Shown here: positions 611-51,500 of the stretch, in pieces
Layout of the letters: every line of letters begins with the position of its first letter
Numbering within the stretch: the first letter of the stretch is position 1
Assembly: GCA_016839585.1 (NCBI GenBank)
Contig: JAEOTZ010000023.1
Span: forward strand, 29,370 to 93,369
Direction: 5' to 3'
Source of the DNA: Promethearchaeota archaeon
Lineage (GTDB): Archaea; Asgardarchaeota; Lokiarchaeia; Sigyniarchaeales; SOKP01
Length of the DNA: 64,000 nucleotides
Translations under genes and position numbers: made by a program
The notes under the pieces: generated by a model
Told to the model about the DNA's origin: nothing
Database searches by the model: none
The model's input: the letters and a program-made list of their open reading frames with translations, nothing else

Positions 611-1147
611 TTGATAGAAATTGATGACGCAGGAACGGGGGATCTTGTAGGAGATGCATTTATTGGCCTCCTAAGAAAAGAGACCGGGAAATTAATTTTT
701 AGAACCTTACCGGTTGAGCTATTTAAGGGAGATAATTGGAAAAACAAACTACCTTTTAAAATTGTAGTTGACTTAGTTAAAGAGGGGCTGAAAGAATTAA
801 ATTTCAATAAAAACAGTGAAATGATAAAAATTTGTAGGGGAAATATTTTTAATCAAGTAAGAGCTTATTTTATAGAAGAGGGAATAAATTATGAAAATTC
901 TATAGTAGAAGGAAAATTACAGGATGCTGTAGAAAACAAATTAATTACTCATCTTAGAGAAGACTTAGGAGTTAGATCTAGAAATCTGACAACTAAAAGT
1001 GGAGCAAAAAGATTTTTTATTTTATTTAATTGGGTTTGTTATGATTTTTTCAATAGAGAAAAATATGTAAAGTCAGGTTTTAAGAAATGGAATACAGTCT
1101 GGAGAGATCGAGCTATTGAAAAAAATAAAAAAATAAAAAATTCATAA
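611..1147 (+). CDS. Hypothetical protein with RNase HII-like N-terminal motif
   Basis: IEIDDAGTGDLVG resembles RNase HII GIDEAGRGPxxG; remainder is divergent. Confidence 0.55.
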   Translation: MIEIDDAGTGDLVGDAFIGLLRKETGKLIFRTLPVELFKGDNWKNKLPFKIVVDLVKEGLKELNFNKNSEMIKICRGNIFNQVRAYFIEEGINYENSIVEGKLQDAVENKLITHLREDLGVRSRNLTTKSGAKRFFILFNWVCYDFFNREKYVKSGFKKWNTVWRDRAIEKNKKIKNS

Positions 1148-1330: not shown

Positions 1331-3658
1331 ATGCGAAATATTGGGTCTCCTCCTTCTAAAAAAAAATTTATCGGAGCTTTAACATTATTAGCTCTTGGTT
1401 TTGCTTTGATACCGACCGGTTTTCTGCTTAATGATTTTATTCAAACTGAAATTGATAAAGGTATTGCTGATGAAATTCGAATACCTGAACTGGATGACTC
1501 AGGTTATGATGAATGGATATCAAATGATTATCCAAGTGCCATTCCTATGTACAGAAAATTTTATATGTGGAATTTAACTAATCCTATTGAGTTTCTTATG
1601 GGAAAGAAACCAGAGCTTGAAGAGATTGGTCCTTATACTTTCCGGGAATATACAACAAAATATAATGTGAGTTTTAGTGCCAATATGGATGAGGTAACCT
1701 ATAAACAATACCCAACATATATATTTCAGCCTGATATGTCTGCTCCCTTATGCTCTCTGGATGATAATATTATAAACATAAATCCTGCCTATTTAGGAGT
1801 TCTGGAATTAGCAGGAAATGAGGAAAATCTAATTAAAGCCATGTTTCCAACTGTTCTTTCAGAAGTGAAAACCCTATTTGGAGAAGAATTAAATGTAACT
1901 CTAGGAGAACTTTTGACTAATGAAGGAATTTATAACATGCTCGTAGGGGCTTTGTATGACATACTTAGCGATTTATTTTCTGGACTTCTTGGTGATGGGG
2001 CGATAAACCTAACTGCTACATGGATAGTTGATTTTCTTACTACATACATCGTACCGTTAGAAGATCTGGTGGAATTTATGGATGATGCGATGCCTAGTGC
2101 TGAAGCAATTTTCTTTGCGGAATGGGCAATTGATTATTTTCCTGAAGTTCAAGTGGATTTATCTATTTTATTTGGACATATATTAGAAGTAATAAGCGAT
2201 CTTGTTGATTTTATTATTGATCTCATTTTCTTTTGGGATGTTTTACACTTATTTGATGCTATTAAGGATGCTCTACATGAAGAACTTATGAATATGTTTG
2301 AAGAGTTGTTTACTGAATCTCCAGTAGCAGAATTAATTGGAGGACTCTTTGCGGATTTGATCCGAAGTCTAGGCGCTAAAATGGTTGATGAGGAAGGTAG
2401 CGAGACGGGTGAAGGGGTTGATATTGATGGTCGAGAACCCTATAATTTTCCAGGTCCAAGTTCTGATCTAAATATCATTAATCGTAGTGAAGCCGGTGAA
2501 TCTGGAATCACTCAGGAGCAATGTCAAGCTCTTTGGGATCAGAACAACCCAAACTCACTTCTTGGTATGGATGTACAGGTTAATCCGATATGGTTTGAAG
2601 CATTAGCAGGAATTGAAGAAAGTAAAATATTCTTAATGAATGCATTTTATTTAAATGAAACTCAACTAGATTTAATTTTGAATTGGATTGATACTAGTTT
2701 AACTGGATGGCAAAAAAATATTTGTGAATATTCGATAAAAGATTGGAATAGCGGTTTACTTACTACTCGTACTGTCGAAGAATGGCTCTTCACAGCTGTT
2801 GACAATTTAGTAAATGAACAAAACCCTGCAAAAGCAAAAGTAGGGTTTTTTGACAATTGCTTTTCTGAAACTGAAGCGGAAGCTGAGGATATGAAAAGTT
2901 TTACCGTAAATACAGGTAAAAATGATATTAATAAAGTCTGTGAGATTGTTAAATATGATGGTAAGGAAAATATTACTGTTTGGGAAGAAGAAGAAATTGT
3001 TCAAGGTACAGCGGGTACTCAATTCGCACCGGGGGTTTCTAAAAATAACCCTCTTTATGTCTTCATAACTGATTTATTAAGAGCAGTAGAGATTATCTAT
3101 ACTGAAACTACTAGTATTTATGATATTGAATTATATAGGTTTGAAATATCGGAAGAGACCTTTAAAGTTAACCCAAAATACTACCAATCCATTGAAGGGT
3201 TAGCTAATATGACAGTAGATCAAGGAATTCCTGCTTTCTTAAGTAAACCTCATTTTCTTGATGCAAGTAGCTATCTGAAAGATTCTGTGACTGGTTTAGA
3301 TCCCAATAAGGCAGAACATGACACTTATCTTGATATTGAGCCTTTAACGGGCGCTGCAATGAATGCAGCTGAAAGAATACAGATTAATTTTCTGGTTAAT
3401 CAAACTGATAAATGGTATATAAACTGCTGGGAAGGCATGATGCCTATTGTTTGGCTTGAATTTGGTGGACAAATAACAGAAAATCTAGCAAATAAATTCA
3501 AAAATTTGGTTTATACCGCTCAAAATCTAAGTGAAAATCTGTTCTATGGATGTATTAGTATTGGGGCTACCCTGATTATTCCTGGTGTGATTTTTACAAC
3601 AACACAGAATAGAAAGCGATTAAACGTTAAAAAACAAAAATTATCACAAAGCGTTTAA
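1331..3658 (+). CDS. CD36/scavenger receptor class B (LIMP-2/croquemort-like) membrane protein
   Basis: N- and C-terminal TM helices; FYMWNLTNP..KPELEEIGPYTFRE, GTAGTQFAP, LSKPHFLDA, HDTYLDIEPLTG, RIQIN, MPIVW motifs in CD36-family order. Confidence 0.9.
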   Translation: MRNIGSPPSKKKFIGALTLLALGFALIPTGFLLNDFIQTEIDKGIADEIRIPELDDSGYDEWISNDYPSAIPMYRKFYMWNLTNPIEFLMGKKPELEEIGPYTFREYTTKYNVSFSANMDEVTYKQYPTYIFQPDMSAPLCSLDDNIININPAYLGVLELAGNEENLIKAMFPTVLSEVKTLFGEELNVTLGELLTNEGIYNMLVGALYDILSDLFSGLLGDGAINLTATWIVDFLTTYIVPLEDLVEFMDDAMPSAEAIFFAEWAIDYFPEVQVDLSILFGHILEVISDLVDFIIDLIFFWDVLHLFDAIKDALHEELMNMFEELFTESPVAELIGGLFADLIRSLGAKMVDEEGSETGEGVDIDGREPYNFPGPSSDLNIINRSEAGESGITQEQCQALWDQNNPNSLLGMDVQVNPIWFEALAGIEESKIFLMNAFYLNETQLDLILNWIDTSLTGWQKNICEYSIKDWNSGLLTTRTVEEWLFTAVDNLVNEQNPAKAKVGFFDNCFSETEAEAEDMKSFTVNTGKNDINKVCEIVKYDGKENITVWEEEEIVQGTAGTQFAPGVSKNNPLYVFITDLLRAVEIIYTETTSIYDIELYRFEISEETFKVNPKYYQSIEGLANMTVDQGIPAFLSKPHFLDASSYLKDSVTGLDPNKAEHDTYLDIEPLTGAAMNAAERIQINFLVNQTDKWYINCWEGMMPIVWLEFGGQITENLANKFKNLVYTAQNLSENLFYGCISIGATLIIPGVIFTTTQNRKRLNVKKQKLSQSV

Positions 3659-3751: not shown

Positions 3752-4453
3752 ATTCTTACGGTTAATAAAAAAAATACTATTGATCATGAATTTGTAATTT
3801 TAGAGAGTATTAGGGATAACCCTGGAGGAGTTACAGCTTCAGATATAGCTAAAATTACAAAATTCTCAAGAAATACTGTTTCTAAATATGTTCGCAGCCT
3901 TGAGGTTACAAATCAAATATTTAGTAAAAAAGTTGGTGCTTATAAATTATATTTTGCCGTGGAAAAGAGGTATATTCCATTCGAAACTGCTATTTCATAC
4001 TACAAAGCACTTTTATCAAAAATTAAAAAACACTTCCCAGATACAGAGGAAATAGCAAAAAAAATCGGAAGAGAGGCTGTTAAAGATATAAAATTTACAT
4101 TTGGACCCAGCATTTATAAACAATTAAAAAGCATAAAAGATCATCCCATTTCAAGAATACACTTAGAAAGTTTCAAAAGTTATTACTCTGCTTATGATAT
4201 TTTTCAACCCAATATCGATATTTCCATTTTAAAAATAGATCCAGAAGGTAAAAAAGCAACTTATAGATTTAAAAATTCTGTCTTTTTAGAAAATTCTGAT
4301 GAGTTTATATATCATCTTTATATTATGTGTGGGATTAGTGAAGGAATACTTAATAGAGTATTAAAAACAGAAGTATCATGTGAAATTGAGCAAATTTTTA
4401 TTTCTGATAATAAAGAGGACTCTTTTTTTGATCTAAAAATTAAAATAAAATAA
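3752..4453 (+). CDS. Winged-HTH transcriptional regulator with V4R/H-NOX-like C-terminal domain (start uncertain, non-canonical)
   Basis: Frame is open from 3731. ILESIRDNPGGVTASDIAKITKFSRNTVSKYVRSLE...KKVGAYKLYF lies upstream of the track's GTG 3959. C-terminus has AKKIGRE...CGISEGIL. Confidence 0.75.
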   Translation: MLTVNKKNTIDHEFVILESIRDNPGGVTASDIAKITKFSRNTVSKYVRSLEVTNQIFSKKVGAYKLYFAVEKRYIPFETAISYYKALLSKIKKHFPDTEEIAKKIGREAVKDIKFTFGPSIYKQLKSIKDHPISRIHLESFKSYYSAYDIFQPNIDISILKIDPEGKKATYRFKNSVFLENSDEFIYHLYIMCGISEGILNRVLKTEVSCEIEQIFISDNKEDSFFDLKIKIK

Positions 4454-5420: not shown

Positions 5421-7316
5421 TTGATCATGTCAATAAGTCCATTTTCTTCCAATGAAATACAAAATTTAATGGAATTTATTCAAAAAAATGGATGGAATAT
5501 AGAAGGAATTATTGAAAACTTCTTCCGATACAGTATAAAGAAAAAGAAATTAGTTTTATTTACGATAAAATTTCCAGTCACTTTACCCTTAAGGATTAAT
5601 GTTCCGTTTGAAATTGTTAGTTTTCGTATTTCTCTTGCGTTCCAATTATGGCATTTAAACCAACATATCTATAACACAATTCTTTATTTAATGAAAACAT
5701 TAAGGAATTTAGCGTTATCCTTGACTATGGAACATAAATTTCCAATTGAGGGAAAACAACAACAGGTTATAGATTTATTAAATTTAATTTTACCTGAAAT
5801 AATAAACAATGAAAATGAAAATACATGGTTAAACCGAATTCGGATCTCATTAATGAATAAAAGAGATCAATTAAAAGATTATATACCTGAGAAACTTAAG
5901 AGTTTAGTTGAAGTTTTAAGAAATTCAGGATTAGAACCTACTTTCAAGCAGCCCTGGGAATTAAGAAAGGGTGTTCCTAAAATTAGAACCTCTGAGACTT
6001 TATTTTTTTCAAATGAAGAAGATTTTAATGAATTTTTTATATTGGAAAAGGGATATTATACTTATTTCAAAGATATTGCATATAATAAATTCTATATAAG
6101 AAGCGCATTTGATAGTTACACACCTTATATTTTAAATGATTTATTTAATGATATTCCTGATTTCAAATTAGAATTGTTTATAGAAAATTGGATCAAATTT
6201 TCTAGAATAATTCTTAATTCTATATTAGAAATTCTTTCACAAGGAAATATAAATCAACATGAATTTATACAATTCAGGCCTGAGAAAGAATTAATTGATA
6301 ATATTGAAAATTTTATTTCAGAAAAGAACAATTTTCCATTTTCTGCGTTACGCTATGAAAGTTTTATAGCAAAAGAGGTATTTCCTATTCATACTGACTT
6401 ATTAAATAAACCTCCTACTAATTTTGAAGTAATAGAAACCATGAATCATTATACAGCAGCTGAGGAATTAATAAAAAACTATCGATTTGAAGAAGCTACT
6501 AACATTTTCAATGAATCTCTTAAAGTTTTTAATAAAAATCAACAAAAAAAGATTGTTGTTTCAATCTTGTTGAAATTAAGAAATATAGCAATTCTATTAG
6601 ATCAACGAGATGCAGCTCTCAATTATTTACAAAATGCTTTTGGAGTTGCTAAATCAGGAGAAGTTCCTATAGAATATATAATTAAAATCCATTATAAATT
6701 AGGAAAAACACATTATAGAAGGAAAGATTTTGAAAAATCTTTAAATCATTTTAAAATTATAACTAATTTCTTGAAAAGCGAAGATGTTACTCTAAATAAA
6801 GAAGAATATATAGGTATGGCCTATCTTTATATTGGATTAATTAATTCAGAGCAAAATAATATCGTTGAATCCAAAACCAATTTTAAAAAAGTAATAGAAT
6901 TGAGTAAAAATTCAAATAAAATTAAATTAAAATATTACCTCCTTCGTGCAATTCAATTAAAGAACAGAGGAAATTTATCTCAAGCTCAAAAATTATTGAA
7001 TGTCGCTATTAACGATGTTGGATTTGATTTTGGCGATGATAGTTATCGGAATATTTTAATGGATCTAATTCTTGAATTAGCTGAATTTTATATTCATTAT
7101 AGAAAAGATTCAAAAAAAGCATTCTATTTGTTGAATAAAATGCAGAATCATCTTTCTTTTAAGGAAGTAAACAATATACGTAGATCAGTTCGCTGGAACT
7201 TGTTAATGAGCGATTATTATAATATTATTGCTAGGGACAGTAAAAATTCTCAATTTTATTTAAAACAGAGCCAGAAACTTAAAGCTCAATTAAGAACAAT
7301 AGGAATAATAGAATAA
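5421..7316 (+). CDS. TPR-repeat protein
   Basis: C-terminal half has TPR-like helices (IHYKLGKTHY..FEKSLNHF; AYLYIGLIN..ESKTNFKKVI). Confidence 0.7.
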   Translation: MIMSISPFSSNEIQNLMEFIQKNGWNIEGIIENFFRYSIKKKKLVLFTIKFPVTLPLRINVPFEIVSFRISLAFQLWHLNQHIYNTILYLMKTLRNLALSLTMEHKFPIEGKQQQVIDLLNLILPEIINNENENTWLNRIRISLMNKRDQLKDYIPEKLKSLVEVLRNSGLEPTFKQPWELRKGVPKIRTSETLFFSNEEDFNEFFILEKGYYTYFKDIAYNKFYIRSAFDSYTPYILNDLFNDIPDFKLELFIENWIKFSRIILNSILEILSQGNINQHEFIQFRPEKELIDNIENFISEKNNFPFSALRYESFIAKEVFPIHTDLLNKPPTNFEVIETMNHYTAAEELIKNYRFEEATNIFNESLKVFNKNQQKKIVVSILLKLRNIAILLDQRDAALNYLQNAFGVAKSGEVPIEYIIKIHYKLGKTHYRRKDFEKSLNHFKIITNFLKSEDVTLNKEEYIGMAYLYIGLINSEQNNIVESKTNFKKVIELSKNSNKIKLKYYLLRAIQLKNRGNLSQAQKLLNVAINDVGFDFGDDSYRNILMDLILELAEFYIHYRKDSKKAFYLLNKMQNHLSFKEVNNIRRSVRWNLLMSDYYNIIARDSKNSQFYLKQSQKLKAQLRTIGIIE

Positions 7317-7328
7317 TAAAAAGAGAAA

Positions 7329-7535
7329 TTACTTACGCTTGTAGGAGGCACGTTTTGCGCCAAGACTATCTTGTTGACCCCCAAAACGGCCATTTATAAA
7401 TCTAGCAGCATATAACTCTCTAAATCGCATCCTTGGAGGTTTCTTCTTTTTTGCATTTACTCCTGATCGCTCAATTTTCGGAGTCTGCATCTTAACTTTT
7501 CCCGCTTTTGTTAATGAACCATGAGAACCCGGCAT
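7329..7535 (-). CDS. rps30e: 30S ribosomal protein S30e (eS30)
   Basis: HGSLTKAGKVKMQTPK signature; AGGAG SD upstream. Confidence 0.95.
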   Translation of the reverse strand: MPGSHGSLTKAGKVKMQTPKIERSGVNAKKKKPPRMRFRELYAARFINGRFGGQQDSLGAKRASYKRK

Positions 7536-7723
7536 TATTATTAAACTCCTTATTTTAAGTTTTATATGATTTATACTATAATATTATCAATTAATTAAAA
7601 CTCTTAAATTTTGTCATTTTTAATAAAAAATCTAAAGATCGGACTCCAAATTCTTTATTATTTCATCTAAAATTTAATATTTGTAATAAAATTCTATTTT
7701 AAATTAAAAATTGGGAAACGTCT

Positions 7724-7885
7724 ATGTCATATAATGAAAAAAAACAAGAAAATAGTACTTCAGAAAATAAAATAGAAAAAATTTTATATGGTGTTAATGA
7801 TAATGTTTGTTTTGCATGCGGAGAAAAGATTAAACGTAACACTATGGTATGTCCTTATTGTAAAACTAAAATTAAATTAGGATGA
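7724..7885 (+). CDS. Small zinc-ribbon protein (53 aa, not in ORF track)
   Basis: ATG 7724 to TGA 7885: ...VCFACGEKIKRNTMVCPYCKTKIKLG. Confidence 0.7.
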   Translation: MSYNEKKQENSTSENKIEKILYGVNDNVCFACGEKIKRNTMVCPYCKTKIKLG

Positions 7886-7901
7886 AACTAAATAAAATAT
7901 T

Positions 7902-8396
7902 ATGACCCATCGAAATATTCGAAGAAAGCAACTTATTAGTATATGGGTTTTGGTTATTGTCATATTTACTATTTTATCCGTTGTTTTATCGCTTGTACTT
8001 GATTCATATATATGGTGGATCTTAATACCGATTGCATTTCTTTTAATTGCTACATTTCAAGCTATGTCTCACTTTTTTTGGATCGCTGAAAAAACTTGCC
8101 CTAGATGTAATGTTCCAACAAGTATATATTCAGAATTCTGCAGAAATTGCGGGTTAAAATTGTTACATAGATGTCCTTCATGTAGGAAATACTTAAGCAC
8201 TGAAAGGCAATTCTGTGATAGTTGTGGGTATGAGTTTAAATATATTGAGGAAGAAAAGGAACCTTTTAAATATGAAGTACTAGAAGAGGGTACTCCTGCT
8301 CCACAAAAGCCAAACTTTTGTACTACTTGCGGTGCTAGAATAAAAAGCGAAGAAGAAATTAAATATTGTGAAATGTGTGGAGCAAAAATCGAATAA
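7902..8396 (+). CDS. Membrane protein with double/triple zinc ribbon
   Basis: Two TM helices followed by six CxxC pairs. Confidence 0.8.
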   Translation: MTHRNIRRKQLISIWVLVIVIFTILSVVLSLVLDSYIWWILIPIAFLLIATFQAMSHFFWIAEKTCPRCNVPTSIYSEFCRNCGLKLLHRCPSCRKYLSTERQFCDSCGYEFKYIEEEKEPFKYEVLEEGTPAPQKPNFCTTCGARIKSEEEIKYCEMCGAKIE

Positions 8397-8411
8397 GTAT
8401 CTATCTTTTAC

Positions 8412-8981
8412 TTAAGTTTTTTTATTCCTAAATAAAAATGATAATCCAATCCATAAAAATAGATAAACTAGATAATTTCTTATAAATACTGATAAATCTT
8501 CTCCATAATATGCTAATTTTAGGAAATATACAGAAAATAACCAAATTGTATTCAAAAGAATAATAAAAGGCGCAAATTTCTGCCTTAATGTTTCTTTCTT
8601 TTTCCAAATTAAATAAATACTAAGTAATAAAGGTATTAGATGTATATAATCATAGAAAAGAAAGATAAAAAAAAATTCATATGATACAATTATTCCTAAT
8701 GGGGCTAATGAATATACTAAGAAATTATTTAAATACGGATTGTCATGATAAATCAGCCATGCTATTGAAAGAGAGAAGTACCATTGACTTATTGTAAAAA
8801 TCACTATATTAACTCCCTCATCTCCATGTTGCCTAACTCCATGCTGAAATGTGTCTAATGGTTGCCACCAATAAGGTATTAAAAATTGAAATAGTAAAGA
8901 TATTATGGTGGCAATCGCAACTTGAATTAATGTTATAGACTCTAAGCTTAAATTATTGAGCTTAATTGGAAACTTTAGCAT
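8412..8981 (-). CDS. Hypothetical integral membrane protein
   Basis: About six hydrophobic segments. Confidence 0.7.
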   Translation of the reverse strand: MLKFPIKLNNLSLESITLIQVAIATIISLLFQFLIPYWWQPLDTFQHGVRQHGDEGVNIVIFTISQWYFSLSIAWLIYHDNPYLNNFLVYSLAPLGIIVSYEFFFIFLFYDYIHLIPLLLSIYLIWKKKETLRQKFAPFIILLNTIWLFSVYFLKLAYYGEDLSVFIRNYLVYLFLWIGLSFLFRNKKT

Positions 8982-23318: not shown

Positions 23319-24725
23319 ATGCCTTTTAATATTGCATTTGATATAGCACATAAACCAAGGGGTAGAATCGATGAAAACCTCACTGAACTTCGAGATTATT
23401 TAAATACAAATGATTTTGTATGTTATAACTTTTTAGAAGCACCAATAACAGAAGAATCTTTAATGCCATATGATATCTTAGTATTTGTATGCCCTGATTT
23501 TGCAAAGATATCTCCTTTAGAAATTACTGAGATTATAAACTGGATTAAAAATGCTGGCGGAGGTTTATTATTATTATCTCATGCTGGTGGTGATAGAGGT
23601 CGCAATAGTAATTTATCTGAAATTTCTGAACAATTTGGTATTGCTTTTGAAAATGATCAAGTTTTGGATGAAACTATTAATTTAGGCATTGAGAATATAC
23701 CAAAAATCTCTACCTTCAATATTCCCCATCCTATAACAACTGAAATCTATTCATTATGCTATCGCTCTGGATGCTCACTTACGATTATCGGTGGTGGTGC
23801 TTTTTCAATAGCCGATTCCAATGAAACTTCTGAACCATTTTCTTGTCCTTTGATTTGTGTTTCTGAATCAGAATATGGTAGAGTTTGTTGTATTGGAAGT
23901 TATGAAATTTTTAGAGATAAAGTTGGAGGTGGCTTTCAATGTGATCAACACCCAGATTTAGCTTTGAATATTTTTAAATGGCTAGTTTCTGATTATCGAA
24001 TGGACTTAAGATCAAGTGGTCAAATTCCTGTTCCCTCACCTGATATCCCTAGTGGTTCAACTCAGGTAGCGGAACCATTGGATACAACTGCTAAATCTAC
24101 CTCAACTACTAAACGAGCTATTGATATTGATTTTTCAATGAAAATTTATAAGAAAAGTGAATTAATGGAACTATTAAAAATCTTTCAAAATCAAATAAAT
24201 ACAATAAAAAATACGATTGATAAATTGATAAAAACAACTGAAGCGTCAGAAAAAGAGATTATTGAACTTACTGAGACTAAGACTTCCAAGATACCTTCAC
24301 AAACTCAAGAGTTTGTTCCAGATGCTCAAATTTCAGAAGAAACTGAAAAGCAAGATTATATCAAACTGGGGGAACAAGGAGAGCCAACTCTAACTGCTTT
24401 ACCTCCAAAACCGGGGACACTAAAAACAGACCAAGATTTTATAGGATTACCTTTAGTTGATGATGAATCTAAGATTTCTTTAAAACCTGCTCCTAAACTT
24501 AAAAAGCAATCCAAAGCAAAATCAATTAAAGAATTAAGAGAAGAAAAGAAAGGATTAGTAACCAAAGTAGATTCTGTTGAAAATTTAATGAAAATTATTG
24601 ATAATAAACGCGATAGTGGAAAAATAGATGATGAATCTTATATTAAGCAATCAAAAAGATTACAAGCAGATTTAAAGAAAGCTAAAAAGAGGATGGCATC
24701 AATCGATAAACTTTTGAAAAAATAA
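23319..24725 (+). CDS. GIFT (GldG/IFT52-like) domain protein with C-terminal coiled coil
   Basis: IAFDIAH; PITEESLMPYDILVFVCP; GGGLLLLSHAGGD..SNLSEISEQFGIAFEND; HPIT; GRVCCIGS; N..LALNIFKWL-type terminal helix. Confidence 0.72.
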   Translation: MPFNIAFDIAHKPRGRIDENLTELRDYLNTNDFVCYNFLEAPITEESLMPYDILVFVCPDFAKISPLEITEIINWIKNAGGGLLLLSHAGGDRGRNSNLSEISEQFGIAFENDQVLDETINLGIENIPKISTFNIPHPITTEIYSLCYRSGCSLTIIGGGAFSIADSNETSEPFSCPLICVSESEYGRVCCIGSYEIFRDKVGGGFQCDQHPDLALNIFKWLVSDYRMDLRSSGQIPVPSPDIPSGSTQVAEPLDTTAKSTSTTKRAIDIDFSMKIYKKSELMELLKIFQNQINTIKNTIDKLIKTTEASEKEIIELTETKTSKIPSQTQEFVPDAQISEETEKQDYIKLGEQGEPTLTALPPKPGTLKTDQDFIGLPLVDDESKISLKPAPKLKKQSKAKSIKELREEKKGLVTKVDSVENLMKIIDNKRDSGKIDDESYIKQSKRLQADLKKAKKRMASIDKLLKK

Positions 24726-25887: not shown

Positions 25888-28443
25888 CTATTTTCGTTTA
25901 GTTAGTAGTAGCCATATAGTAAAAAGAGCGCTTATAGCAAGGAGTACACTTCCACTAATAATAAAACTCATAAAATAAATATTACCGATTTCATCGTGAT
26001 TTAATGGTAATCCTGATTCTTCTTGTAATAAACTAAGAGCAAAATTATCACGAATAAAATTTAACCAATCTAAAATTGCATCCATTTGATCATTATTTAA
26101 ATCAAGGGCATTTTTTAAATAATTATATGTACTGGATACTTTCATTGCTTTAAACCATTTTGGAAATCCTAAATGGTTAGTGAGCGCTAAATCATTAAGA
26201 TCATTAGTGTGAAAAGGAATCCAAATTGTAGTAGGAGACCAAAGTATTTCTGCTACTTCTTTAGTAATATTTGTAGATGTTGGGATACCCACTTCCCAAC
26301 CATCAAGCGAATCAACCCCTATTATTAAAGATGCACCGGGATCCAGTCCCTCCTTGAATAATGAACCATTTGTCCATTGACGATAAAATTCAAAGACTGT
26401 TAAATCTTCCAACGTATAATACTCTGGAAGGTGTGTAATTGGATGCTCATAAGCTGTAGCAATCTCAACCATGTTTGGGACTACAATATTCTTAAATGTG
26501 GTAAATAACCAATTAGTTATCATGTTGAATTGAGTATTATTAAGTTGAAAAATATTCATTAATTCTGCTTGTACAGTTGGATTTACCTCATATGCTTCAA
26601 TCCATTTTAAAAGTCCATCTTTATTGATAAATGCTGATTTATTATACTCGTCAAAGAGAGCAGTAGCTGTAGATAGTGAAATATTACTTGGAGTTGGAAC
26701 GCCCACTTCAAATCCTTTAGTTCCACTTCCAAATGGATCCAGATCTAACCCACTACTATCTACAGTTCCATTAGCCCATTGCATTAAAATTACAACAGGT
26801 GCATATTCCAATGGTGTAACATTTTCTCCTTGGAAATTTAAGTAAGTAAATAAAATTGGTACAATAATTAGTCGAATTGTATTGAATATCCATCTATAAA
26901 ATTGGCTGTGAGTGGTATTATAAATTAAAAATTCATCCATATTAAAAGTTGCATTTAATTCATTTTGCGCTGTTATATCTCCCTTATAAGCATCAAACCA
27001 TTTTTTAATTCCACTTTCATTCACAATTGAATGTGAATTACTTGGATCCCATAAATCTTGAACTGTACTATTTATAATATTAGACGCATCAGGAATACCT
27101 AATTCCAGACCTTTTTCTTCGACTGCCGCAACTATATCTCTGATTAAATAATCGCTTATATATTCTCCTAATGGTAGAAGTTGATCATTCCACGTAGCAT
27201 TGTATGTAGTTTCCATCAAAGTTCTGGTTCCAATATCTATAATAGCTAAATCATAAAGAACCATCCATTTTACTAGACCAAGACCAACTGATAATTGAGT
27301 CAACAAACCAGGGGAATCAAGATAACCATCAAGTAATCGTTCTTGAGCAGTAGAAGTATAATTTAAACTGTACGTAACATTACTCACATGCTCCGATACT
27401 CCCTTAAGAGTGGATGAGATATTAGTTTGTACTGTATAATTATTGAAAAACCATTCTCTTGCAAGGGTTTCATTATCTTCTGTATATAATTTTATCTCTC
27501 TTATTGTTTTAGAGATATAGTAAGCTCCTACTATGCTTTTCATCTCAAACTCAAGTTCTTCGAGAATATCTTCTAAATTTAATCCACTTGGGTAATAAGA
27601 GCCATTTGTCCATTGACTATAAAATACTGAATTCGCATAAGTTTCTATATCTAAAGGTTCATATTCCTTTTTAACAATCTCAGGCCAAAGAAATGTAGTG
27701 ATATAAGCCGATACGTTTTGGAGTTGTTTAGAATTCCAAGAACAATTATAAACTAATTCCATTGTACTTCTTGAACCAGGATCAACTTCTGCATCAGCAT
27801 AAAAATCTAACCATTCTATAAGACCTACACCAGTCTCAAGATCAGTAAGTATTCCTGGATAGTCAGTATCTCCCAGCGTATACCCATACAATATTTTAGA
27901 AGACGTACTAGATGAATAGTTAAGACTTACTGTCCCACCCATCATACGCTCCGAAATTCCTTCTATTGCAGTAGAAAAATCATCTTGAAAAGTATAATTA
28001 TTGAAAAATTGGTTTCTGGCGTTATCCCAAGTACTACTGTTATAGATCGTTAAATTAGCTATTGCGTTATAAATAATATTAGCAGCTCCTGTGCTATTTA
28101 TTATTAAAGGTAATTTCTTAAGAGTTCTGTTTTGAAGGATTAATAGAGTATCAGGAATGGCTTCAACTTTAACCACATCATCAGAAATATTTGGTGCTAA
28201 CATATTTCGGATTCCATCAAGAACTTCAGGAATTCCTAAACCAAGAAATTGGGATTCTATTTCAGGAAGAACTTCTTCTTGAATTTGTAAAAGTGTATTC
28301 GGAATTTCAGCATAAACTTCGTTTCTAATATATCCATTTATTAATGCCCCAACGGGCATCAATCCTAAACTAAAAGCTATTGCAAGTACCGAAATGTATA
28401 GTTTTGCTTTAGATAGCATAATAAATATTTTGAATTGTTTCAT
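25888..28443 (-). CDS. Two-TM membrane glycoprotein built from repeats related to the CD36 insertion region
   Basis: TM at both ends; three copies each of QW(T/A)NG..G L and G(L/F/W)E(L/V)G(I/V)P..SNI...W; many N-x-S/T sequons. Confidence 0.75.
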   Translation of the reverse strand: MKQFKIFIMLSKAKLYISVLAIAFSLGLMPVGALINGYIRNEVYAEIPNTLLQIQEEVLPEIESQFLGLGIPEVLDGIRNMLAPNISDDVVKVEAIPDTLLILQNRTLKKLPLIINSTGAANIIYNAIANLTIYNSSTWDNARNQFFNNYTFQDDFSTAIEGISERMMGGTVSLNYSSSTSSKILYGYTLGDTDYPGILTDLETGVGLIEWLDFYADAEVDPGSRSTMELVYNCSWNSKQLQNVSAYITTFLWPEIVKKEYEPLDIETYANSVFYSQWTNGSYYPSGLNLEDILEELEFEMKSIVGAYYISKTIREIKLYTEDNETLAREWFFNNYTVQTNISSTLKGVSEHVSNVTYSLNYTSTAQERLLDGYLDSPGLLTQLSVGLGLVKWMVLYDLAIIDIGTRTLMETTYNATWNDQLLPLGEYISDYLIRDIVAAVEEKGLELGIPDASNIINSTVQDLWDPSNSHSIVNESGIKKWFDAYKGDITAQNELNATFNMDEFLIYNTTHSQFYRWIFNTIRLIIVPILFTYLNFQGENVTPLEYAPVVILMQWANGTVDSSGLDLDPFGSGTKGFEVGVPTPSNISLSTATALFDEYNKSAFINKDGLLKWIEAYEVNPTVQAELMNIFQLNNTQFNMITNWLFTTFKNIVVPNMVEIATAYEHPITHLPEYYTLEDLTVFEFYRQWTNGSLFKEGLDPGASLIIGVDSLDGWEVGIPTSTNITKEVAEILWSPTTIWIPFHTNDLNDLALTNHLGFPKWFKAMKVSSTYNYLKNALDLNNDQMDAILDWLNFIRDNFALSLLQEESGLPLNHDEIGNIYFMSFIISGSVLLAISALFTIWLLLTKRK

Positions 28444-43901: not shown

Positions 43902-45488
43902 TTACATAAATGTAATTACGACATTATATTTTTTTATTTCTGATTCTACTAAAGCTTTGCCTAAAGGGCTTAAAGTCACAATTCCATTGCTTTTTATTTT
44001 TAAAGTAGTCAATTTTACATTAGGATCCTTCATTGAAGGTATATAAGGATTCCAATATATTTCTTTTGTCATTGGGTTGGTGATCATCCATAATTCTGGA
44101 TCTAATTTATATCCCGTTATCTCCATAGCTTTAAAAACATAACCAACATCAGCATCAAAAGGAACTACAATTTGTACGTTCTCTTCACCTTCAATTTTTC
44201 CGCAAGCTAGGCAATCTTCTCGTTTCATAATATTTAAATGGTCAAATTGACCATAAATACCATTATAGTTTACATATGGAGGATCCATCGGAGGACCGAT
44301 GTTTCTTCCTTTAATTCTAAATAAAAGCTTTAAAGCCTCTTGAGATTGTATACTAGAGATAACTGAGCTAACTGATTGTATGGCAGCGATTTTATTACCC
44401 AAAATATTTTCCATTTCTTCAAATTTGTAATCTGGTCCGAACGTTTCTTTTATATTTTTCTTCCATTCTTCTATTTCTTCTTCGGATAAAAGCTTTCTTT
44501 TCTCTGGAGGCACATTTTCGTCAAACACTCTTTCCCTTAATTTGTACAGTTCCTCTTCGGCTAATTCTTTCAATTTAATAACTTCATCGTTTAAATTAAG
44601 ATCAGGTTTATGACCAAACTTTTTTTCAAATTCTACTTCTGCTTTAATAACGCAATGATTCCTATTCCGTGGTAACCCTTTTAAGGTACAAGCAGCAACT
44701 AATTTATCATCAGCAGGAGGAATTGGAACTAGACATCTATAACAAGGTGTGATATTTAATAATCTAGGAGCATATTCTTTTTCAAAAACATTTTCAATTT
44801 CTTTTCTAACTTTTTTTTTAACAGGTTCAATTATCTCTTTTTTTATTCGCTCGATTCGATCTTCTAATTCTTCTATTCTTTTCATTGCCGCAAAATATTC
44901 AGGTAATTCAGTTTCATTGATCTCCCATAACTTAGATTCTACTAGGTTATCAATTTCACTCTCTCTATCTTTGTATTGTAAACCAGATCCTTCAGGAATC
45001 ACAATCTGAACGTGACCTTCGAAACCTACAGTCCCTCCCTCAACCATTAGTTTTTTCAATCTCAAGCAAATTTTATTCAAATCTAGTCGTGCATTAAAGT
45101 TATCTAAAGCAGCGATAACTACATCTGCCTCTTCATATACAGACATAGGTAATTTTTGGAGCTTTTCAAAATAATAGTCAACTTTCAAGTATGGATTTAT
45201 TTCTTTCAATCTCTCCGCCGCAACTTCAGCTTTCGGTCGTCCTTCATCTCCTGGTTTAAATAACATTTGACGTGATAAATTCGATGTTTCAATAGTATCT
45301 AAATCCACAAGAATCAGTTTGCCAATGCCCATCAGAGCGAAATCTTTAGCAATTTCACAGCCTAAAGCCCCTACTCCAATAATTAGGATACAACCATCAT
45401 CTAATATGTCTTGAGACCAACCATCTATTAATTGTTGCCTCGCAAACATACGAGATTTAAAAAAGTCTTTATTTTTTTGTTCTATCAT
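43902..45488 (-). CDS. Ubiquitin-activating enzyme E1-like (ThiF/UBA)
   Basis: GVGALGCE; DLDTIETSNLSRQMLF; LDNFNAR; PCYRC; catalytic ACTLKGLPRNRNHC; CLACG; UFD-like C-terminus. Confidence 0.92.
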   Translation of the reverse strand: MIEQKNKDFFKSRMFARQQLIDGWSQDILDDGCILIIGVGALGCEIAKDFALMGIGKLILVDLDTIETSNLSRQMLFKPGDEGRPKAEVAAERLKEINPYLKVDYYFEKLQKLPMSVYEEADVVIAALDNFNARLDLNKICLRLKKLMVEGGTVGFEGHVQIVIPEGSGLQYKDRESEIDNLVESKLWEINETELPEYFAAMKRIEELEDRIERIKKEIIEPVKKKVRKEIENVFEKEYAPRLLNITPCYRCLVPIPPADDKLVAACTLKGLPRNRNHCVIKAEVEFEKKFGHKPDLNLNDEVIKLKELAEEELYKLRERVFDENVPPEKRKLLSEEEIEEWKKNIKETFGPDYKFEEMENILGNKIAAIQSVSSVISSIQSQEALKLLFRIKGRNIGPPMDPPYVNYNGIYGQFDHLNIMKREDCLACGKIEGEENVQIVVPFDADVGYVFKAMEITGYKLDPELWMITNPMTKEIYWNPYIPSMKDPNVKLTTLKIKSNGIVTLSPLGKALVESEIKKYNVVITFM

Positions 45489-45585: not shown

Positions 45586-48500
45586 TTATTTTTTCTTTTT
45601 TTTAGCAACTTCTTTAAGCATCTTTTTTATATCATCAACTTTTTCTCTTTCTTTAGCACTTTTTAGTTCTTCTACTTTCTTTCTCTTTTCATCCTCTTTT
45701 TTTGCCAATTCTGCAAAAAGATCTTCTTTTAATTGAATTAAACCTCCCATTTTCTTGCTAAAGTCTTGTGCTTGTTTCTTGATTTGAATTTTTTGTTGTT
45801 CTGCTTCAGTTCTTTGTTTTTTTCTTCGTTCTTCGATTAAAGTAATTACATCACCCGCTAAATCTCCAACTTCTGCTATAGTTTGTTGCAACTCAGACTC
45901 TTTTTGTATCCTCTGAGACTCCTCTAAAGATTTTTGCTTTTCTAATTGTTCATAAATTATTTGAATCCTTAAATCTTCTTTTTTTACTCGGTCTTCTAAT
46001 ATCTTTGTGTTTTTTATTTCATTTTGAATATACTTTACTTCCTCATCCCAACCAATTTCTCTGAATTTTTCAATCGCCAAATTAAAATTCTCATAGGATT
46101 GGTCAAAATCATGATATGCTGCCCATTTCTTTCCTTCATCAATTAAATTTAAACCTTCATCTCTTAATCTATCTGCTTGTTCTCTCTTTAAGTATAACTC
46201 TCTATATTGCCTTAGTTGTTCTTGTTTTAATTTTTCTTGTTCTATACGTCTTCTTCTTACTTCCTCTTGAAATAATATATATTCATTTTGTCTTTGTAAT
46301 CTAGCTTGTTCTTCTAATCTTTTCCTTTCAATGAAATTTGCTTTCTCTAGCTGTAAATCATTAATTAAATCGTTCAAATGGGTGATTTCAGGTTGCCAGC
46401 CGATATTTTCTGTTAAAAAGTCTCTGGCTTGAGTATATAATGCTATTGCGGAATCATAATCGGGAGAATGTCCTTTTAGGTGACTTTGAGCTTTTTCTAA
46501 AAGTGAATAAGCAGCTTCTCTTTGGTTCATTTGTTCCTGAATAACTCTCTCCCTTTCTTGAAGTGCTAATTGATGAGCTATTTTCTTTTCTTTTTCTTGT
46601 CTTTGTCTTTCTTCAATAATTGCTTGTAATTGTCTTTCTTCTTCTAATCTTTCTAACTCCCTTTGAAATTTTAATGGTTCTGTCTGTTCTTTTTGTTTTT
46701 TAAGTTCTGTAATCTTAGATATCATATTTTCAATAGATTTGGTTGGAAATTGTAATTGATTTAATAATAAACCAGCCTTTCTATAACTTTCTAATGCACC
46801 ATTATAATCTAATCTTTTTGAAGCATTTTCAGCTTCATCTAAAATCTTAAATGCTTCTTGTTTTCTTTTTTCTAAGATTCTTTTCCTTTCTTCGATTTCT
46901 AATATTTGAATTTGTTTTGATTTCAAACGATCTTTCTCACTATTGATACTTTCAGCAATTTTCCTTTGGAATTCTCGTTCTTCTCTTTCTTTTTGAATTG
47001 CCAGCTCTAATTCATTCTGTTTTTCTAGTTGATGTTCTTTTTTCTTCTCTTGAACTTTATGAATCATTTCTCTTATAGATTCAGTTGGGAATTGAATTTC
47101 GTTCAAAATTATTTCAGCATTACGGTAATATTCAAGGGCTTTATCATACTGTCCATTTTTCATAAAAATCTCTGCTTCTTCTAAAAGATTGAATGCATCC
47201 TCTTTTCTCTTTTCCATATAAACATATAATTCTCTCTGCTTCACAAGCTGCTGTTCTTTTGATTTCCTAATCTTATCTTTTATTTTTAACCGTTCATTAA
47301 TAACTTGTAGGAATAAAAATTCTTCTCTCTCTTTTTTAATTTGGTTTTCAAATAGTTTTTGTTTCCTTAAATTTTCTTCTTTTAGTTTATCCTGGATTTT
47401 TTGAATCATTTCCTTAACTGCAACTGTCGGAAATCTAATTTCATTTAAAATTAATTCAGCCTGACGATATTTTTCGATAGATTGCTCATAATTGCCTTGA
47501 TTTAATAAATTTTCTCCTATATCCATTATTTCAAAAGCCTCTTTCTTACGATTTTCCATGTAGAGTTTTAAATCTTCTAATTTTTGAATATCGATTTTTT
47601 TTGCTTGAATCCTTTCTTTTTCTTTTTGTAAATACTCAGTAACTTTCATTTGGAATTGTTCTTCTTCTTTTTGCCTCTTAATGACTATTTCCTGCTCTAA
47701 TTGTTTGTCTTTTTCTGTTTCTAATTTTCGATGTTTTACTGTTTGAATTGTTTCTTGTAACACTCTCAGATATTCACTTGTCCATCCAATTTCCCTTAAA
47801 ATTTCTATTGCTTTTTGATAATTTTCTATTGAATTATTAAATTTTTTTTGAGTGAGTAATAGATCTCCTTCCTCAATTAAATTGAAAGCATTTTCTTGCT
47901 TAGCTAAATTATGTGCGGATATAATTCTTTGTGTTTCTAAGAGTTCTTGTTGTTCTAATGCTTTAACTCTTTCAAATTCTCTCCGACGTTTAATTTTTTC
48001 TATAAAAGCATAATCTGCTTTCTCTTTTTCAATTTCCATTTGTAAGGTTTTCTGTCTTATTAAATCCTTTTCCTTCCTTTTGCTTTCAATATCCTTTATA
48101 GCTCTTTGAATTACAGGGATTTCTTCATTCCATTGTATTTGAGCAAAAATATTTGCCACCTTATGATATAATTCAATAGTATTGTCTAAGTTACCTTGAG
48201 ACAGTAGCTCATGCGCTTTATCCAACAAATTAAATGCTTCTTCTTTTCTCTTTTCTCGATGGGCTAGTTCTTGTTCTCTTTCTCTAAATGCAATCTCTTT
48301 CTGTTTTAATTTATCACGCTGAGCTTTCATCATCGTAGAAATTTGATCTTGAAAATCTTTATCTTGCTTTTCTCGCTCTAGAGTTTTCTGTAATTCACTT
48401 TGTTTCTCTAATTCTGTTTCACGTTTCTTAGTTTCAATTTCAAAAATCGAATTTTGTATCAAGCTAACTTCCTCATCCCATTTTATTTCGGTAAATATTT

Positions 48501-51500
48501 TTACTGCTTTATGGTATAATTCAATTGCTTCATCAAATCCTCCTTGTTGAATGTAGTTTTGTGCTTTCTCTAATAAATCAAATCCATCTTTCTTTCTATT
48601 TTCAGCAAATAACTTAAAATTTTCTTGTTCTTTCACCATTTTTTGCTTAGCTTTCATTTTTTCTCCTTCTATTTTCAATTTTTCAGAAATTTCTCGTTGA
48701 AATGTGAGATCTTCTTGTTGCTTTCTAATCCTTGTTTCGAATTCCTTTTGTTTAGCAAGATCATCATCTCTATTCTTTTGTTGAACTTTTTGAATCATTT
48801 CTCTAATAGACCTTGTTGAAAAGCCGACCTCATTTAAAAGTAATTCGGCTTGACGGTATTTTTCAGTGGATTGTACATATTGATTTTGGTTTAACAAATT
48901 TTCGGCTTCATCCATTAATTTAAATGCTTCTTCTTTACGATTTTCTATTTTCTCTATTAACTCTTCTCTCCTTTGAATTTCAAATTCTTTTCTCTTGAAC
49001 CTCTCTTTTTCTTTTTGAATAGAGGTTGAAATTTTTGTTTGGAATAATTCTTCTTCTTTTTGTCTCTTAATTAGTAATTCTTGTTCTAATTGCTTTTCTT
49101 TTTCTCTTTCTCGTTTTCTTGTATTTATAGCCTGAGTAGTCTCTTGTAGCAATTTCAAATATTCATGGGTCCACCCTATTTCTGTCAAAATCTCTATTGC
49201 TCTCCTATAATTTTCTGTAGCTTTATCGAAATTTTCTGCTTGAAGCAAAATATCAGCATCACCGATTAATTTAAAGGCACTTTGTTGTTTAGTTAGATAT
49301 TTTGCTGAAATTTCTTTTTGTTGTTTAATAATCTCTGCTTGTTCCATTTCTTTTGCTAATTCTCTTTCTCTCTGTCTCTTAATTTTCTCTACAAATGCTC
49401 TGTTAACGATTTCTTTTTCAATCGACTTCTGTATTTCTTTTTGCTTTAAAATCTCATTTTCCCTAATTTTGTTTTTAATGTCTTGAATCGCTTTTTGGAT
49501 TATTGGAATTTCATCAATCCATTGAATTTCTGCAAAAATGTTAGCAGCATCATAATAAATCTCAATTGCATAATCTAACTTAGCTTGAGAAATGAGATTT
49601 TGGGCTTTATCTAATAAATAGAAAGCCTCTTCTTTTCTTTTCTCGCGATGAGCAACCTCTTCTTCTCTTTCTCTTAAAATTATCTCTCTTTGTTTTAATT
49701 TATCTCGTTGAGTTTTCATAATTTTAGTAATTTTATCTTGAAACTCCTTTTCTTGTTTTTCTCTCTCAAGAGTAGTTTGTAATTCTATTTGTTTTTTTAT
49801 TTCAGCTTCACGTTTTCTATTTTCAATCTCAATAATAGAATTCTGAATCAAACTTATCTCATTATGCCATTGAGCATCTGCGAAAAAATTCATTGTATAC
49901 TGAAGTATTTCGATTGCATTATCAAAATCTCCTTGTTTTACATGGTCTTGCGCCTCTTCTAAAAGAATAAAACCTGCTTTTCTTTTATCTTCTTGCTCTT
50001 TTAATTCTTCCTCATGTTTTCTCAACGCTATCTCTTTTTTTCTTAATTTTTCACGTTCTACTTGTAATTGTTTAGTAATTTGTCTTTGAAATTCTTCTTC
50101 TTTTTTATGTCTCTCTATTGTTTCTTGGAACTTTTTCTGTTGGATATCAAGTTGTTTCCTTCTTAATTGTTCTATTTCATTAATAGATTTTTCAATTAAT
50201 GGTATCTCATCAACCCACTGAATTTCAGCAAAAATTTTTCCCGCATTTTGATACGCATTAATAGCATTGTCAAAATCTCCTTGTGTAATATAATCGTGAG
50301 CATCATCCATATAATTGAAAGCAACGTTTTTGCGTTGTTCTCTATATTGTATTTCAGCATCTTTTTCTTTCAATTCAATTTCTTTTTGTTTTAATCTTAC
50401 TCGTTCTTTATCTATCTGTTTAGAAATTTTTCTCTGAAATTCTAACTCTTGTTCTTTTCTTTCTTTGATGCCTCTTTGCTCTTCTTGTTGTTTTTTAAGC
50501 TGAAATTGCTTAATCTTACGAACATTAGTTATAGTAGTCTTTATTGTGCCGATATAATGTTCCCATCCTGCCCCTAACTCTTTAAGCATTTCTAAAGCAT
50601 TTTGATATTCATTTATTGCTTTCTCAAAATCTTTTTCTTCTTGTAATATTTTATCTGCTCTCTCTAATATTGTAAAAAACTCATTTTCTTTCTTTTCTTT
50701 TTCTTTTCGCTTTTCTTCAAGTTCTCTTCTCCTAAGCTCTAAATCTTGAGTAGATTGCAATAATTGTTCTTGTTGTTTTAAAGAGATCGATTCTTGAAGT
50801 TGCTTTAGTTGACCTTGTCTTCTTTCCTTTAATTGGTCTGATTTTTGTTCTCCTTTCTGTTTTTCTTTGACATCATTTATTAGATTAATGATAGGCTGAA
50901 TATAAGCATCCCATTCTATTGATTTAAGCATTTCTATTGCTTGATTAAACATTTGGTTTGCTTTATCGTAATTTTTATCCCTTTCAAACATTTTTCCAAT
51001 ATCTATTAGATTAAACGCCTTAGTTTGAATTTCCTCTTCTTGTTTCTTTTTCTCTTCAAATTCTGTTAAATTTTGCTTTTTTAATTCTGCTTCTGAAGTT
51101 ATACTCGGTTGTTTTGACTCCGCTTTACTCTTGATTGCCTCGGAATCTTTTGCTTGTTGGGCTTGAAATTTCTGAAAGTTTTTACGATCTATTTTAAGCT
51201 TTTCAATTATTATTTTAATATTACGGGTTTGTTCGGTCCAACCAATAGAGTTTAATAATTCGACAGCCCTTTCGTAATTCAGTATTGCATTATCGAATTT
51301 TTTCTTTTGTTCATATAATTTTCCTTTATCAATAAGTGCAAATGCTTCATTTTGTATTTCTTCCTCTCGTTTTTTCATTGCTTTATAAGTTTCTATTCTT
51401 TCAATTTTTTCAGGAGTTGCTTTTTCTCCAAACATACTCACAATTTGAGGTTGCTCTTCTGGTTTTTCTCGAATATATTGTTGAGAAGATTCTAATTCTT

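Follow-up and report, generated by a model that had tools for sequence, protein, structure and literature searches.

A CD36-family protein with an expanded apical head in a Loki-type Asgard archaeon

The gene P0001 of a Loki-type Asgard archaeon encodes a genuine member of the CD36 (class B scavenger receptor) family. It lies in a 64,000-nucleotide stretch of contig JAEOTZ010000023.1 from a Promethearchaeota archaeon (assembly GCA_016839585.1); this whole stretch is called the window, and nucleotide positions refer to it. The family is a known one, and what is new in P0001 is its presence in a new domain of life. In eukaryotes, receptors of the CD36 type have a central place in lipid uptake, engulfment and the biology of lysosomes, and P0001 adds a membrane-receptor and lipid-handling component to the proteins common to eukaryotes and their archaeal relatives. 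The best explanation of the data as a whole, which we hold to be rather probable, is that P0001 is an Asgard member of the CD36 family that shares part of its head with protist long forms, that it would act in ligand capture or as a lipid conduit, and that the long form existed before or around the origin of eukaryotes.

Family membership and domain organization

P0001 is an open reading frame (ORF) of 775 codons with an ATG start and no internal stops. It matches the Pfam CD36 family (PF01130) with 330.5 bits against a cut-off of 26.5 (E = 1.8e-98), and the match is split into an N-terminal part at about profile positions 3–172 and a C-terminal part at positions 123–462, which jointly cover positions 3–462. 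Sequence alone also retrieves the solved structures of LIMP-2 (E = 5.5e-43) and CD36 (E = 1e-39), the former again in two pieces (amino acids (aa) 40–152 and 449–730). The features of the gene are given below with the evidence for each, which includes the ratio of nonsynonymous to synonymous substitution rates (dN/dS) and the predicted local distance difference test (pLDDT) of an AlphaFold2 model.

1331–3658 (+): whole CD36-family gene P0001, 775 aa plus stop codon (ORF, Pfam PF01130, LIMP-2 match, dN/dS)
1367–1435 (+): transmembrane helix 1, aa 13–35, preceded by a basic tail, aa 1–12, predicted to be cytosolic (Kyte–Doolittle peak 2.0; model helix 10–49)
1436–1795 (+): N-terminal part of the CD36 core, aa 36–155, with NLTN and GPY motifs (first Pfam stretch; LIMP-2 alignment 40–152; conserved columns; pLDDT 86–97)
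1796–2488 (+): acidic helical part of the apex insert, aa 156–386 (composition; helices 152–356 at pLDDT 64–93; alignment with protist long forms; dN/dS 0.11–0.15)
2489–2710 (+): apex module of about 70 aa, aa 387–460 (jackhmmer; BLASTP to a Phalansterium protein, E = 3e-6; hhalign 98.5%, E = 2.3e-15)
2711–3535 (+): C-terminal part of the CD36 core, the predicted beta-barrel, aa 461–735, with TG, R584, PHF, EP.TG and Q.N motifs (second Pfam stretch; LIMP-2 alignment 449–730; pLDDT 89–97; VIA-align range 44–727)
3539–3601 (+): transmembrane helix 2, aa 737–757, followed by a basic tail, aa 758–775, predicted to be cytosolic (hydropathy peak 2.0; model helix 717–774)

The two terminal membrane helices with their short basic tails point to a hairpin topology in which, by the positive-inside rule, the middle part of about 700 aa should face outward. 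This ectodomain has 10 N-glycosylation sequons, compared with 5.1 ± 2.0 expected by shuffling. The same residue is found at ≥80% in the Asgard, long-form eukaryotic and short-form eukaryotic groups in 25 alignment columns, and P0001 keeps the family-wide motifs N81/T83/N84, G100-P101, T528-G529, R584, P640, E670-P671, G674, Q684, N686 and P705. Ectodomain disulfide bridges have been described in mammalian and insect class B scavenger receptors (PMC10715195). Comparison of the Asgard, long-form and short-form groups shows no conserved Cys column (the sole column with 50% Cys is specific to Asgard), so that the metazoan disulfide framework, as found in vertebrate class B receptors, is without a counterpart in P0001 in this comparison. 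The gene is under purifying selection, with pairwise dN/dS of 0.16–0.22 against three orthologues and of 0.11–0.15 for the insert, which is at least as constrained as the cores.

Predicted fold

The AlphaFold2 model of P0001, built on 34 homologues, has a mean pLDDT of 88.3 and a predicted template modelling (TM) score of 0.76, with pLDDT values of 86–97 in the cores and 64–93 in the insert. LIMP-2 and CD36 occupy the top Foldseek ranks (E = 3e-27, target TM scores 0.83–0.86), and overlay of the model on solved family structure with VIA-align brings 370 of 390 residues into alignment (model range 44–727). On the strength of this model, the ectodomain is predicted to fold as the asymmetric beta-barrel of CD36. 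The insert is modelled as entirely helical, with nine helices at residues 152–356, a loop and short helices at residues 395–471; when it was modelled alone from 7 sequences the pLDDT was 47, and a search of ESM Atlas with the insert gave weak CD36 clusters only (0.78).

These results bear out most of what an earlier note, made from the letters of this DNA, had claimed for the gene. Both terminal transmembrane helices and the CD36 motifs that it described are present, the insertion of roughly 300 aa between the core halves is indeed acidic and helical (aa 156–448, net charge −47, all helices in the model), and the hidden Markov model search and structural overlay that it proposed gave, respectively, the PF01130 match and an almost complete superposition on LIMP-2 and CD36. 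Its remark that animal members are shorter is also correct, yet insert-bearing forms of 740–820 aa occur in protists as well.

Archaeal origin of the gene

The family is described solely from eukaryotes in the literature that we searched, which might suggest eukaryotic contamination or a binning error, but the chance of this is negligible. P0001 is uninterrupted and stands among genes typical of Asgard archaea (an Arf-family GTPase, a ThiF/E1-like enzyme, a 2121-aa MIT/TPR protein and RACo) in 64 kb of uniform G+C content (25–33%), and its genome of 3.45 Mb is 99% complete with 2.2% contamination. Orthologues occupy the same locus in several independent Asgard assemblies: the order of P0001 and its flanking genes, P0256 – CD36 – P0255 and beyond, recurs in three sister genomes, in which the CD36 proteins are 71–92% identical, and further homologues, with the NCBI names Promethearchaeota, Heimdallarchaeota, Hodarchaeales and Kariarchaeaceae, sit on contigs of up to 504 kb. 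Contamination is excluded because of this Asgard gene context and synteny across sister genomes.

A head partly shared with protist long forms

The insert (aa 156–448) contains 14% Leu. Its first part, aa 156–386, comprises the nine helices, an EWA.DYFP motif (aa 264–271) and a conserved Gly/Asp-rich loop (aa 357–385), and is followed by the module, with the pattern SGIT..C.ALWD...W[FI].A...F.L..TQL..IL.W. The loop (window 2399–2485), which lies between the helical bundle and the module, is acidic and Gly/Asp/Pro-rich with the consensus G.GVDIDGR.PYN.PG and is near-invariant in Loki-type CD36 proteins; a metal-binding role for it is conceivable.

Searching 1.84 billion cluster representatives with HMMER yielded 3607 relatives. 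Among the best 150 of these, the spacer between the two core halves is close to zero in proteins of about 500 aa and reaches about 250–300 aa in many proteins of 740–820 aa. Exact look-ups identified many of the latter as eukaryotic, namely Stygiella (Discoba), Rigifila and Diphylleia (CRuMs), and Phalansterium, Cavostelium, Luapelamoeba and Balamuthia (Amoebozoa). The spacer measures 296 aa in P0001 and 250–290 aa in these protist long forms, at the same site (the alpha4/alpha5 apex position). Like P0001, the protist long forms are two-helix membrane hairpins with a CD36 barrel, a total length of 740–820 aa and an apex expansion of about 270–300 aa whose first helix, WAN-type motif and module of about 70 aa they have in common with P0001; identity in the core is about 30%. 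Inserts are also present in Entosiphon (625 aa) and Pygsuia (743 aa), and the module was not detected in them.

Three comparisons bear on the head itself. BLASTP aligned P0001 with the Phalansterium protein over the cores, over the first part of the insert as far as residue 212, and over residues 376–469, which correspond to residues 232–321 of the protist protein (E = 3e-6). Profiles of 35 Asgard and 26 long-form sequences (the named eukaryotes together with unlabelled relatives clustering with them) were colinear with a probability of 100% (hhalign), and the aligned elements of the insert were the helix after the NINPAY motif, the EWA.DYFP/WANxT motif and the module. Lastly, a profile of eight module copies, seven of them taken from Asgard proteins without a CD36 core, matched columns 235–304 of the long-form alignment (98.5% probability, E = 2.3e-15, hhalign) and gave no match to the short-form alignment, which served as the negative control (0.9%). 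Both sides also have segments of their own: the acidic helices at aa 190–256 and 272–385 of the Asgard head are absent from the protist long forms, and about 140 aa that follow the module in the protists are absent from the Loki forms. By contrast, LIMP-2/SCARB2 (PDB 4F7B, 4Q4B), CD36 (5LGD) and SR-BI are about 300 aa shorter than P0001 and have a three-helix apex without the module.

These comparisons show that the P0001 head and that of LmpA-type protist long forms are homologous in part, namely in one helix, the WAN-type motif and the module, and that the insert is not specific to Asgard archaea. The Dictyostelium discoideum proteins LmpA, LmpB and LmpC are tied to the long forms here only through a published survey of the CD36 family (PMC10715195). 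That survey covers Eukarya only and never mentions archaea, and our full-text literature searches found no description of CD36-family proteins in archaea. It proposes that the ancestral apex was a three-helix bundle and that apex expansions arose independently many times (PMC10715195). As the module is common to the long-form lineages of Discoba, CRuMs and Amoebozoa named above, it argues against an independent origin of their expansions. The sharing of this module between Loki-type and Heimdall-type CD36 proteins and the long forms of three eukaryotic supergroups therefore challenges the view of many independent apex expansions.

Distribution in Asgard archaea

A word-indexed search recovered 47 long relatives (471–1033 aa) and two short forms at E of about 1e-30; wherever the source gives a name, it is Asgard. 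The CD36 model scored above its cut-off in 28 of 400 Asgard genomes: 19 of the 134 in the family of the window, with the rest in four further families of the phylum. Representatives of these further lineages bear the NCBI names Heimdallarchaeota, Hodarchaeales and Kariarchaeaceae. Nearly all full-length Asgard CD36 genes show a split match, which places an insert at the same site.

This holds for the Heimdall-type proteins P0061 (Heimdallarchaeota), P0067 (Hodarchaeales) and P0085 (Kariarchaeaceae), which belong to the same clan as P0001. Inserts of the Heimdall type are mostly far larger than that of P0001 (560–1170 aa, in proteins of up to 1648 aa), but those of P0085 and P0064 are smaller, at about 134 and about 250 aa. 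The module occurs once within the CD36 gene in P0061, P0067 and genomes of the families f14, f15 and f17, which are taken as Heimdall-type lineages; these three families have one module match per genome, located inside the CD36 gene in the two with listed coordinates, and no module was detected in P0085. At the upper end of the size range, P0061, P0063, P0065 and P0067 (1333–1648 aa) have apex inserts of 870–1170 aa, three to four times the length of that in P0001, with a single detectable module.

Within the genus of the window the CD36 gene is present in some genomes and absent from others; G006 and G022, the two genomes of the genus searched that consist of a single contig, gave no match to CD36. 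An empty site was found in sister genome G216 (L039, G216:C33:5013-8495), where about 330 nt and no CD36 gene separate the orthologues of the two flanking genes, and in G219 and G004 (L053, L056) the P0255 orthologue is truncated to its last 44–64 residues. The family thus has an uneven distribution and undergoes gain or loss. Two CD36 genes are present in some Loki-family genomes; they form a tandem in G268 (L027, G268:C33:2863-5310 and 5824-8526) and are about 15 kb apart in G278:C4.

Class labels given by NCBI to the ACFE and ACFF series of metagenome-assembled genomes (Hodarchaeota, Hermodarchaeota, Thorarchaeota) were not used for taxonomy, because they are attached to proteins 81–88% identical to the Loki-type P0001. 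Among proteins of this series that are 81–92% identical to P0001, the labels vary between Hodarchaeota, Hermodarchaeota and Promethearchaeota and look unreliable.

Phylogeny and evolutionary origin

Trees were built from core columns only and are unrooted. Three of them were compared (FastTree with 149 rows, a quick IQ-TREE search, and a full IQ-TREE search with 97 rows under LG+C20 with posterior mean site frequencies), and they agree on a Loki-type clade (support 99/95), a Heimdall-type clade (95/80) and the union of the two as one Asgard clan (88/91). The short forms make up a weakly supported clan (66/85), and the long-form eukaryotic groups an unresolved comb. Entosiphon, which has a very long branch, was drawn to the Asgard clan in the full search, probably as an artefact. 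Under midpoint rooting, the Asgard clan falls on the same side of the eukaryotic tree as the long forms. Fast constrained IQ-TREE comparisons were discarded, since they gave differences of 20–95 log-likelihood units even for constraints that the best tree satisfies, which is search noise.

To place the Asgard clade, we regrafted it on 111 branches of a fixed eukaryotic backbone and compared the placements with the approximately unbiased (AU) test under LG+F+G4, with eight long or unlabelled rows left out. The best attachment (pAU = 0.85) is a deep branch between the short forms plus the Balamuthia long-form pair on one side and the other long forms on the other, and the 7 of 111 branches that survive are all stems. 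Placements were rejected inside the Phalansterium/Cavostelium clade (p ≤ 0.006), on the Luapelamoeba stem (0.0004), on the stem of the CRuMs pair (0.023) and inside these groups (p ≤ 0.002). The Asgard clan is therefore not nested in any sampled eukaryotic clade, and its preferred attachment is where an outgroup would be expected to join. The earlier note had called for a phylogeny with protist long forms to separate vertical inheritance from transfer or contamination: the Asgard sequences came out as a clan of their own, outside every sampled eukaryotic clade, and gene context and sister-genome synteny speak for an Asgard source.

If the root lies at the preferred attachment, long forms stand on both sides of the first eukaryotic split, and the expanded head would be ancestral. 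The most economical reading of these sequence comparisons is that long-form CD36 dates from before eukaryotes arose, or from about that time. We consider vertical descent from an Asgard ancestor somewhat more likely than ancient transfer; the fuller proposition, that a module-bearing long-form CD36 was already present in the Asgard lineage ancestral to eukaryotes and was inherited vertically, is a tentative one that falls a little short of an even chance. If true, the last eukaryotic common ancestor possessed a CD36 with an enlarged head and the three-helix apex of animals is a later reduction, the reverse of the hypothesis in PMC10715195, and a receptor type tied to lipid uptake and engulfment is older than phagocytosis.

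A rather unlikely alternative is that an early or stem protist with a long-form CD36 was the donor from which Asgard archaea acquired the family, which then spread between the Heimdall-type and Loki-type lineages; eukaryotes would in that case not owe it to their archaeal ancestor. Presence in 28 of 400 Asgard genomes, set against presence across all eukaryotic supergroups (PMC10715195), would fit such a history, as would the presence/absence polymorphism at a conserved locus within one genus and the position of the Asgard clan under midpoint rooting. A clan outside every sampled eukaryotic clade, with placements inside them rejected, is harder to reconcile with transfer; moreover, the Loki-type and Heimdall-type subclades correspond to two named lineages of Asgard archaea, and the attachment preferred by the data is the point expected for an outgroup.

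Proposed function

LIMP-2, CD36 and SR-BI carry lipids via a tunnel in the barrel. In Dictyostelium, LmpA and LmpB act in bacterial uptake and phagosome maturation (PMC11552500), and the apex is the site of ligand recognition in the CD36 family (PMC10715195). The earlier note had suggested lipid or particle capture at the Asgard surface. By analogy, the head of P0001 would act at the cell surface in binding a ligand or particle, and the barrel would let hydrophobic cargo through to or from the membrane; we give this combination of capture and passage about an even chance. The setting would differ from that of the protist long forms, which work in endolysosomal and phagosomal membranes (PMC11552500), compartments that are not known in this archaeon. 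P0001 offers a concrete protein for testing how Asgard archaea take up lipids or exchange them with their surroundings or partners.

The protein might instead serve mainly as a receptor in adhesion or recognition, engaging partner cells, particles or viruses through its acidic head, with the barrel as a stalk and no lipid transport. The strong constraint on the head (dN/dS 0.11–0.15), the recurrence of the module in other two-helix surface proteins that have no barrel, and the role of the family as a particle receptor in animals and Dictyostelium (PMC11552500) all lend themselves to this idea. We nevertheless judge it unlikely, as the barrel fold is kept almost residue for residue (the 370 of 390 aligned) together with its invariant motifs, which would not be expected of a mere spacer.

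Work in the outward direction, as proposed for the remote bacterial relative LmcA of Mycobacterium smegmatis (PDB 7N3V; PorA family PF11271, Actinobacteria), would have membrane lipids or lipid-linked glycans handed to the envelope, vesicles or protrusions. This seems quite improbable. Similarity to LmcA is too remote for a reliable alignment (12% identity) and not significant by sequence, as P0001 reaches 13.7 bits with PF11271 (E = 0.04), below the cut-off of 29.5. The two are not of the same family; LmcA lacks the apex helical bundle and is anchored differently, and no envelope-biogenesis genes adjoin P0001.

Several points weigh against the overall explanation of P0001 as an ancient long-form receptor for ligand capture or lipid passage. 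The tunnel, the ligand and expression of the gene are putative. The patchy distribution (28 of 400 genomes) and the empty site in one sister genome agree with gain and loss no less than with old ancestry. The tree lacks a root and has a weak backbone (66/85), and a root between short and long forms, if correct, would put the Asgard clan within eukaryotic diversity; the placement scan, for its part, depends on the fixed backbone, on a site-homogeneous model and on a set without the eight long or unlabelled rows. Finally, stand-alone copies of the module are limited to the Loki order, so they do not indicate its birthplace.

The module outside CD36 and the neighbouring genes

Three further features of the window relate to the module or to the locus.

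25888–28443 (−): 851-aa protein with a transmembrane helix at each end, which carries the apex module three times and lacks a CD36 core (BLASTP E = 1e-5 and 8e-5 to aa 391–455 of P0001; three module hits)
3959–4453 (+): conserved neighbour P0255, 164 aa, soluble, possibly V4R-like (adjoins CD36 in 6 of 7 Loki-family loci)
611–1147 (+): upstream flank gene P0256, 178 aa, no family, used as a locus marker (syntenic in the genus; directly adjoins the P0255 orthologue in G216)

The genome of P0001 holds one module copy in the CD36 gene, three in the 851-aa protein and two in each of two proteins of about 530 aa on other contigs (L058, G000 C54:37351-38928, −; L059, G000 C40:7779-9377, +). Membrane helices are present at both ends of all three non-CD36 proteins. 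For the 851-aa protein 61 homologues were obtained; their organism names are Asgard throughout (one is given only as "subsurface metagenome"), and no Pfam family was found in it or in them. A search with the module profile identified 72 carriers other than CD36, again with Asgard organism names throughout. In the genome search, stand-alone copies were limited to the three families of the Loki order, in which 81 of 134, 5 of 14 and 1 of 4 genomes have them. We had considered, from the many Asgard carriers without CD36, that the module arose in Asgard archaea, and withdrew this because of that restriction: expansion of the module outside CD36 is a feature of the Loki order and says nothing about the direction of transfer.

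P0255 is the sole neighbour of CD36 conserved beyond the genus. Its orientation varies among Loki-family loci, and it was not found beside CD36 at Heimdall-type loci. Seven genomes of the genus gave no CD36 match; in these, and also at a second copy in G017, the P0255 orthologue adjoins a divergently transcribed two-helix membrane protein of the module family (loci L036, L037, L038, L040, L043, L044, L045 and L057), with a gap of about 340 nt in the loci checked. As P0255 adjoins module-only proteins where CD36 is undetected, its gene pairs with those of surface proteins that bear the module, whether or not they belong to CD36. In ESM Atlas, P0255 falls into clusters of V4R domains (feature score 0.93), and searches of Pfam, including V4R (PF02830), and of PDB profiles gave no match, so a V4R-type domain is a lead only. 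The V4R domain is predicted to bind small hydrophobic molecules. No Pfam match above threshold was obtained for P0256, and the window contains no tRNA or Rfam matches.

Other genes of the window are also eukaryote-like. They include a 623-aa Arf/Roc-family GTPase (56549–58420, −), the ThiF/E1-like gene (43902–45488, −), the 2121-aa MIT/TPR protein (45586–51951, −) and a match to the GIFT domain of IFT52 (23319–24725, +).

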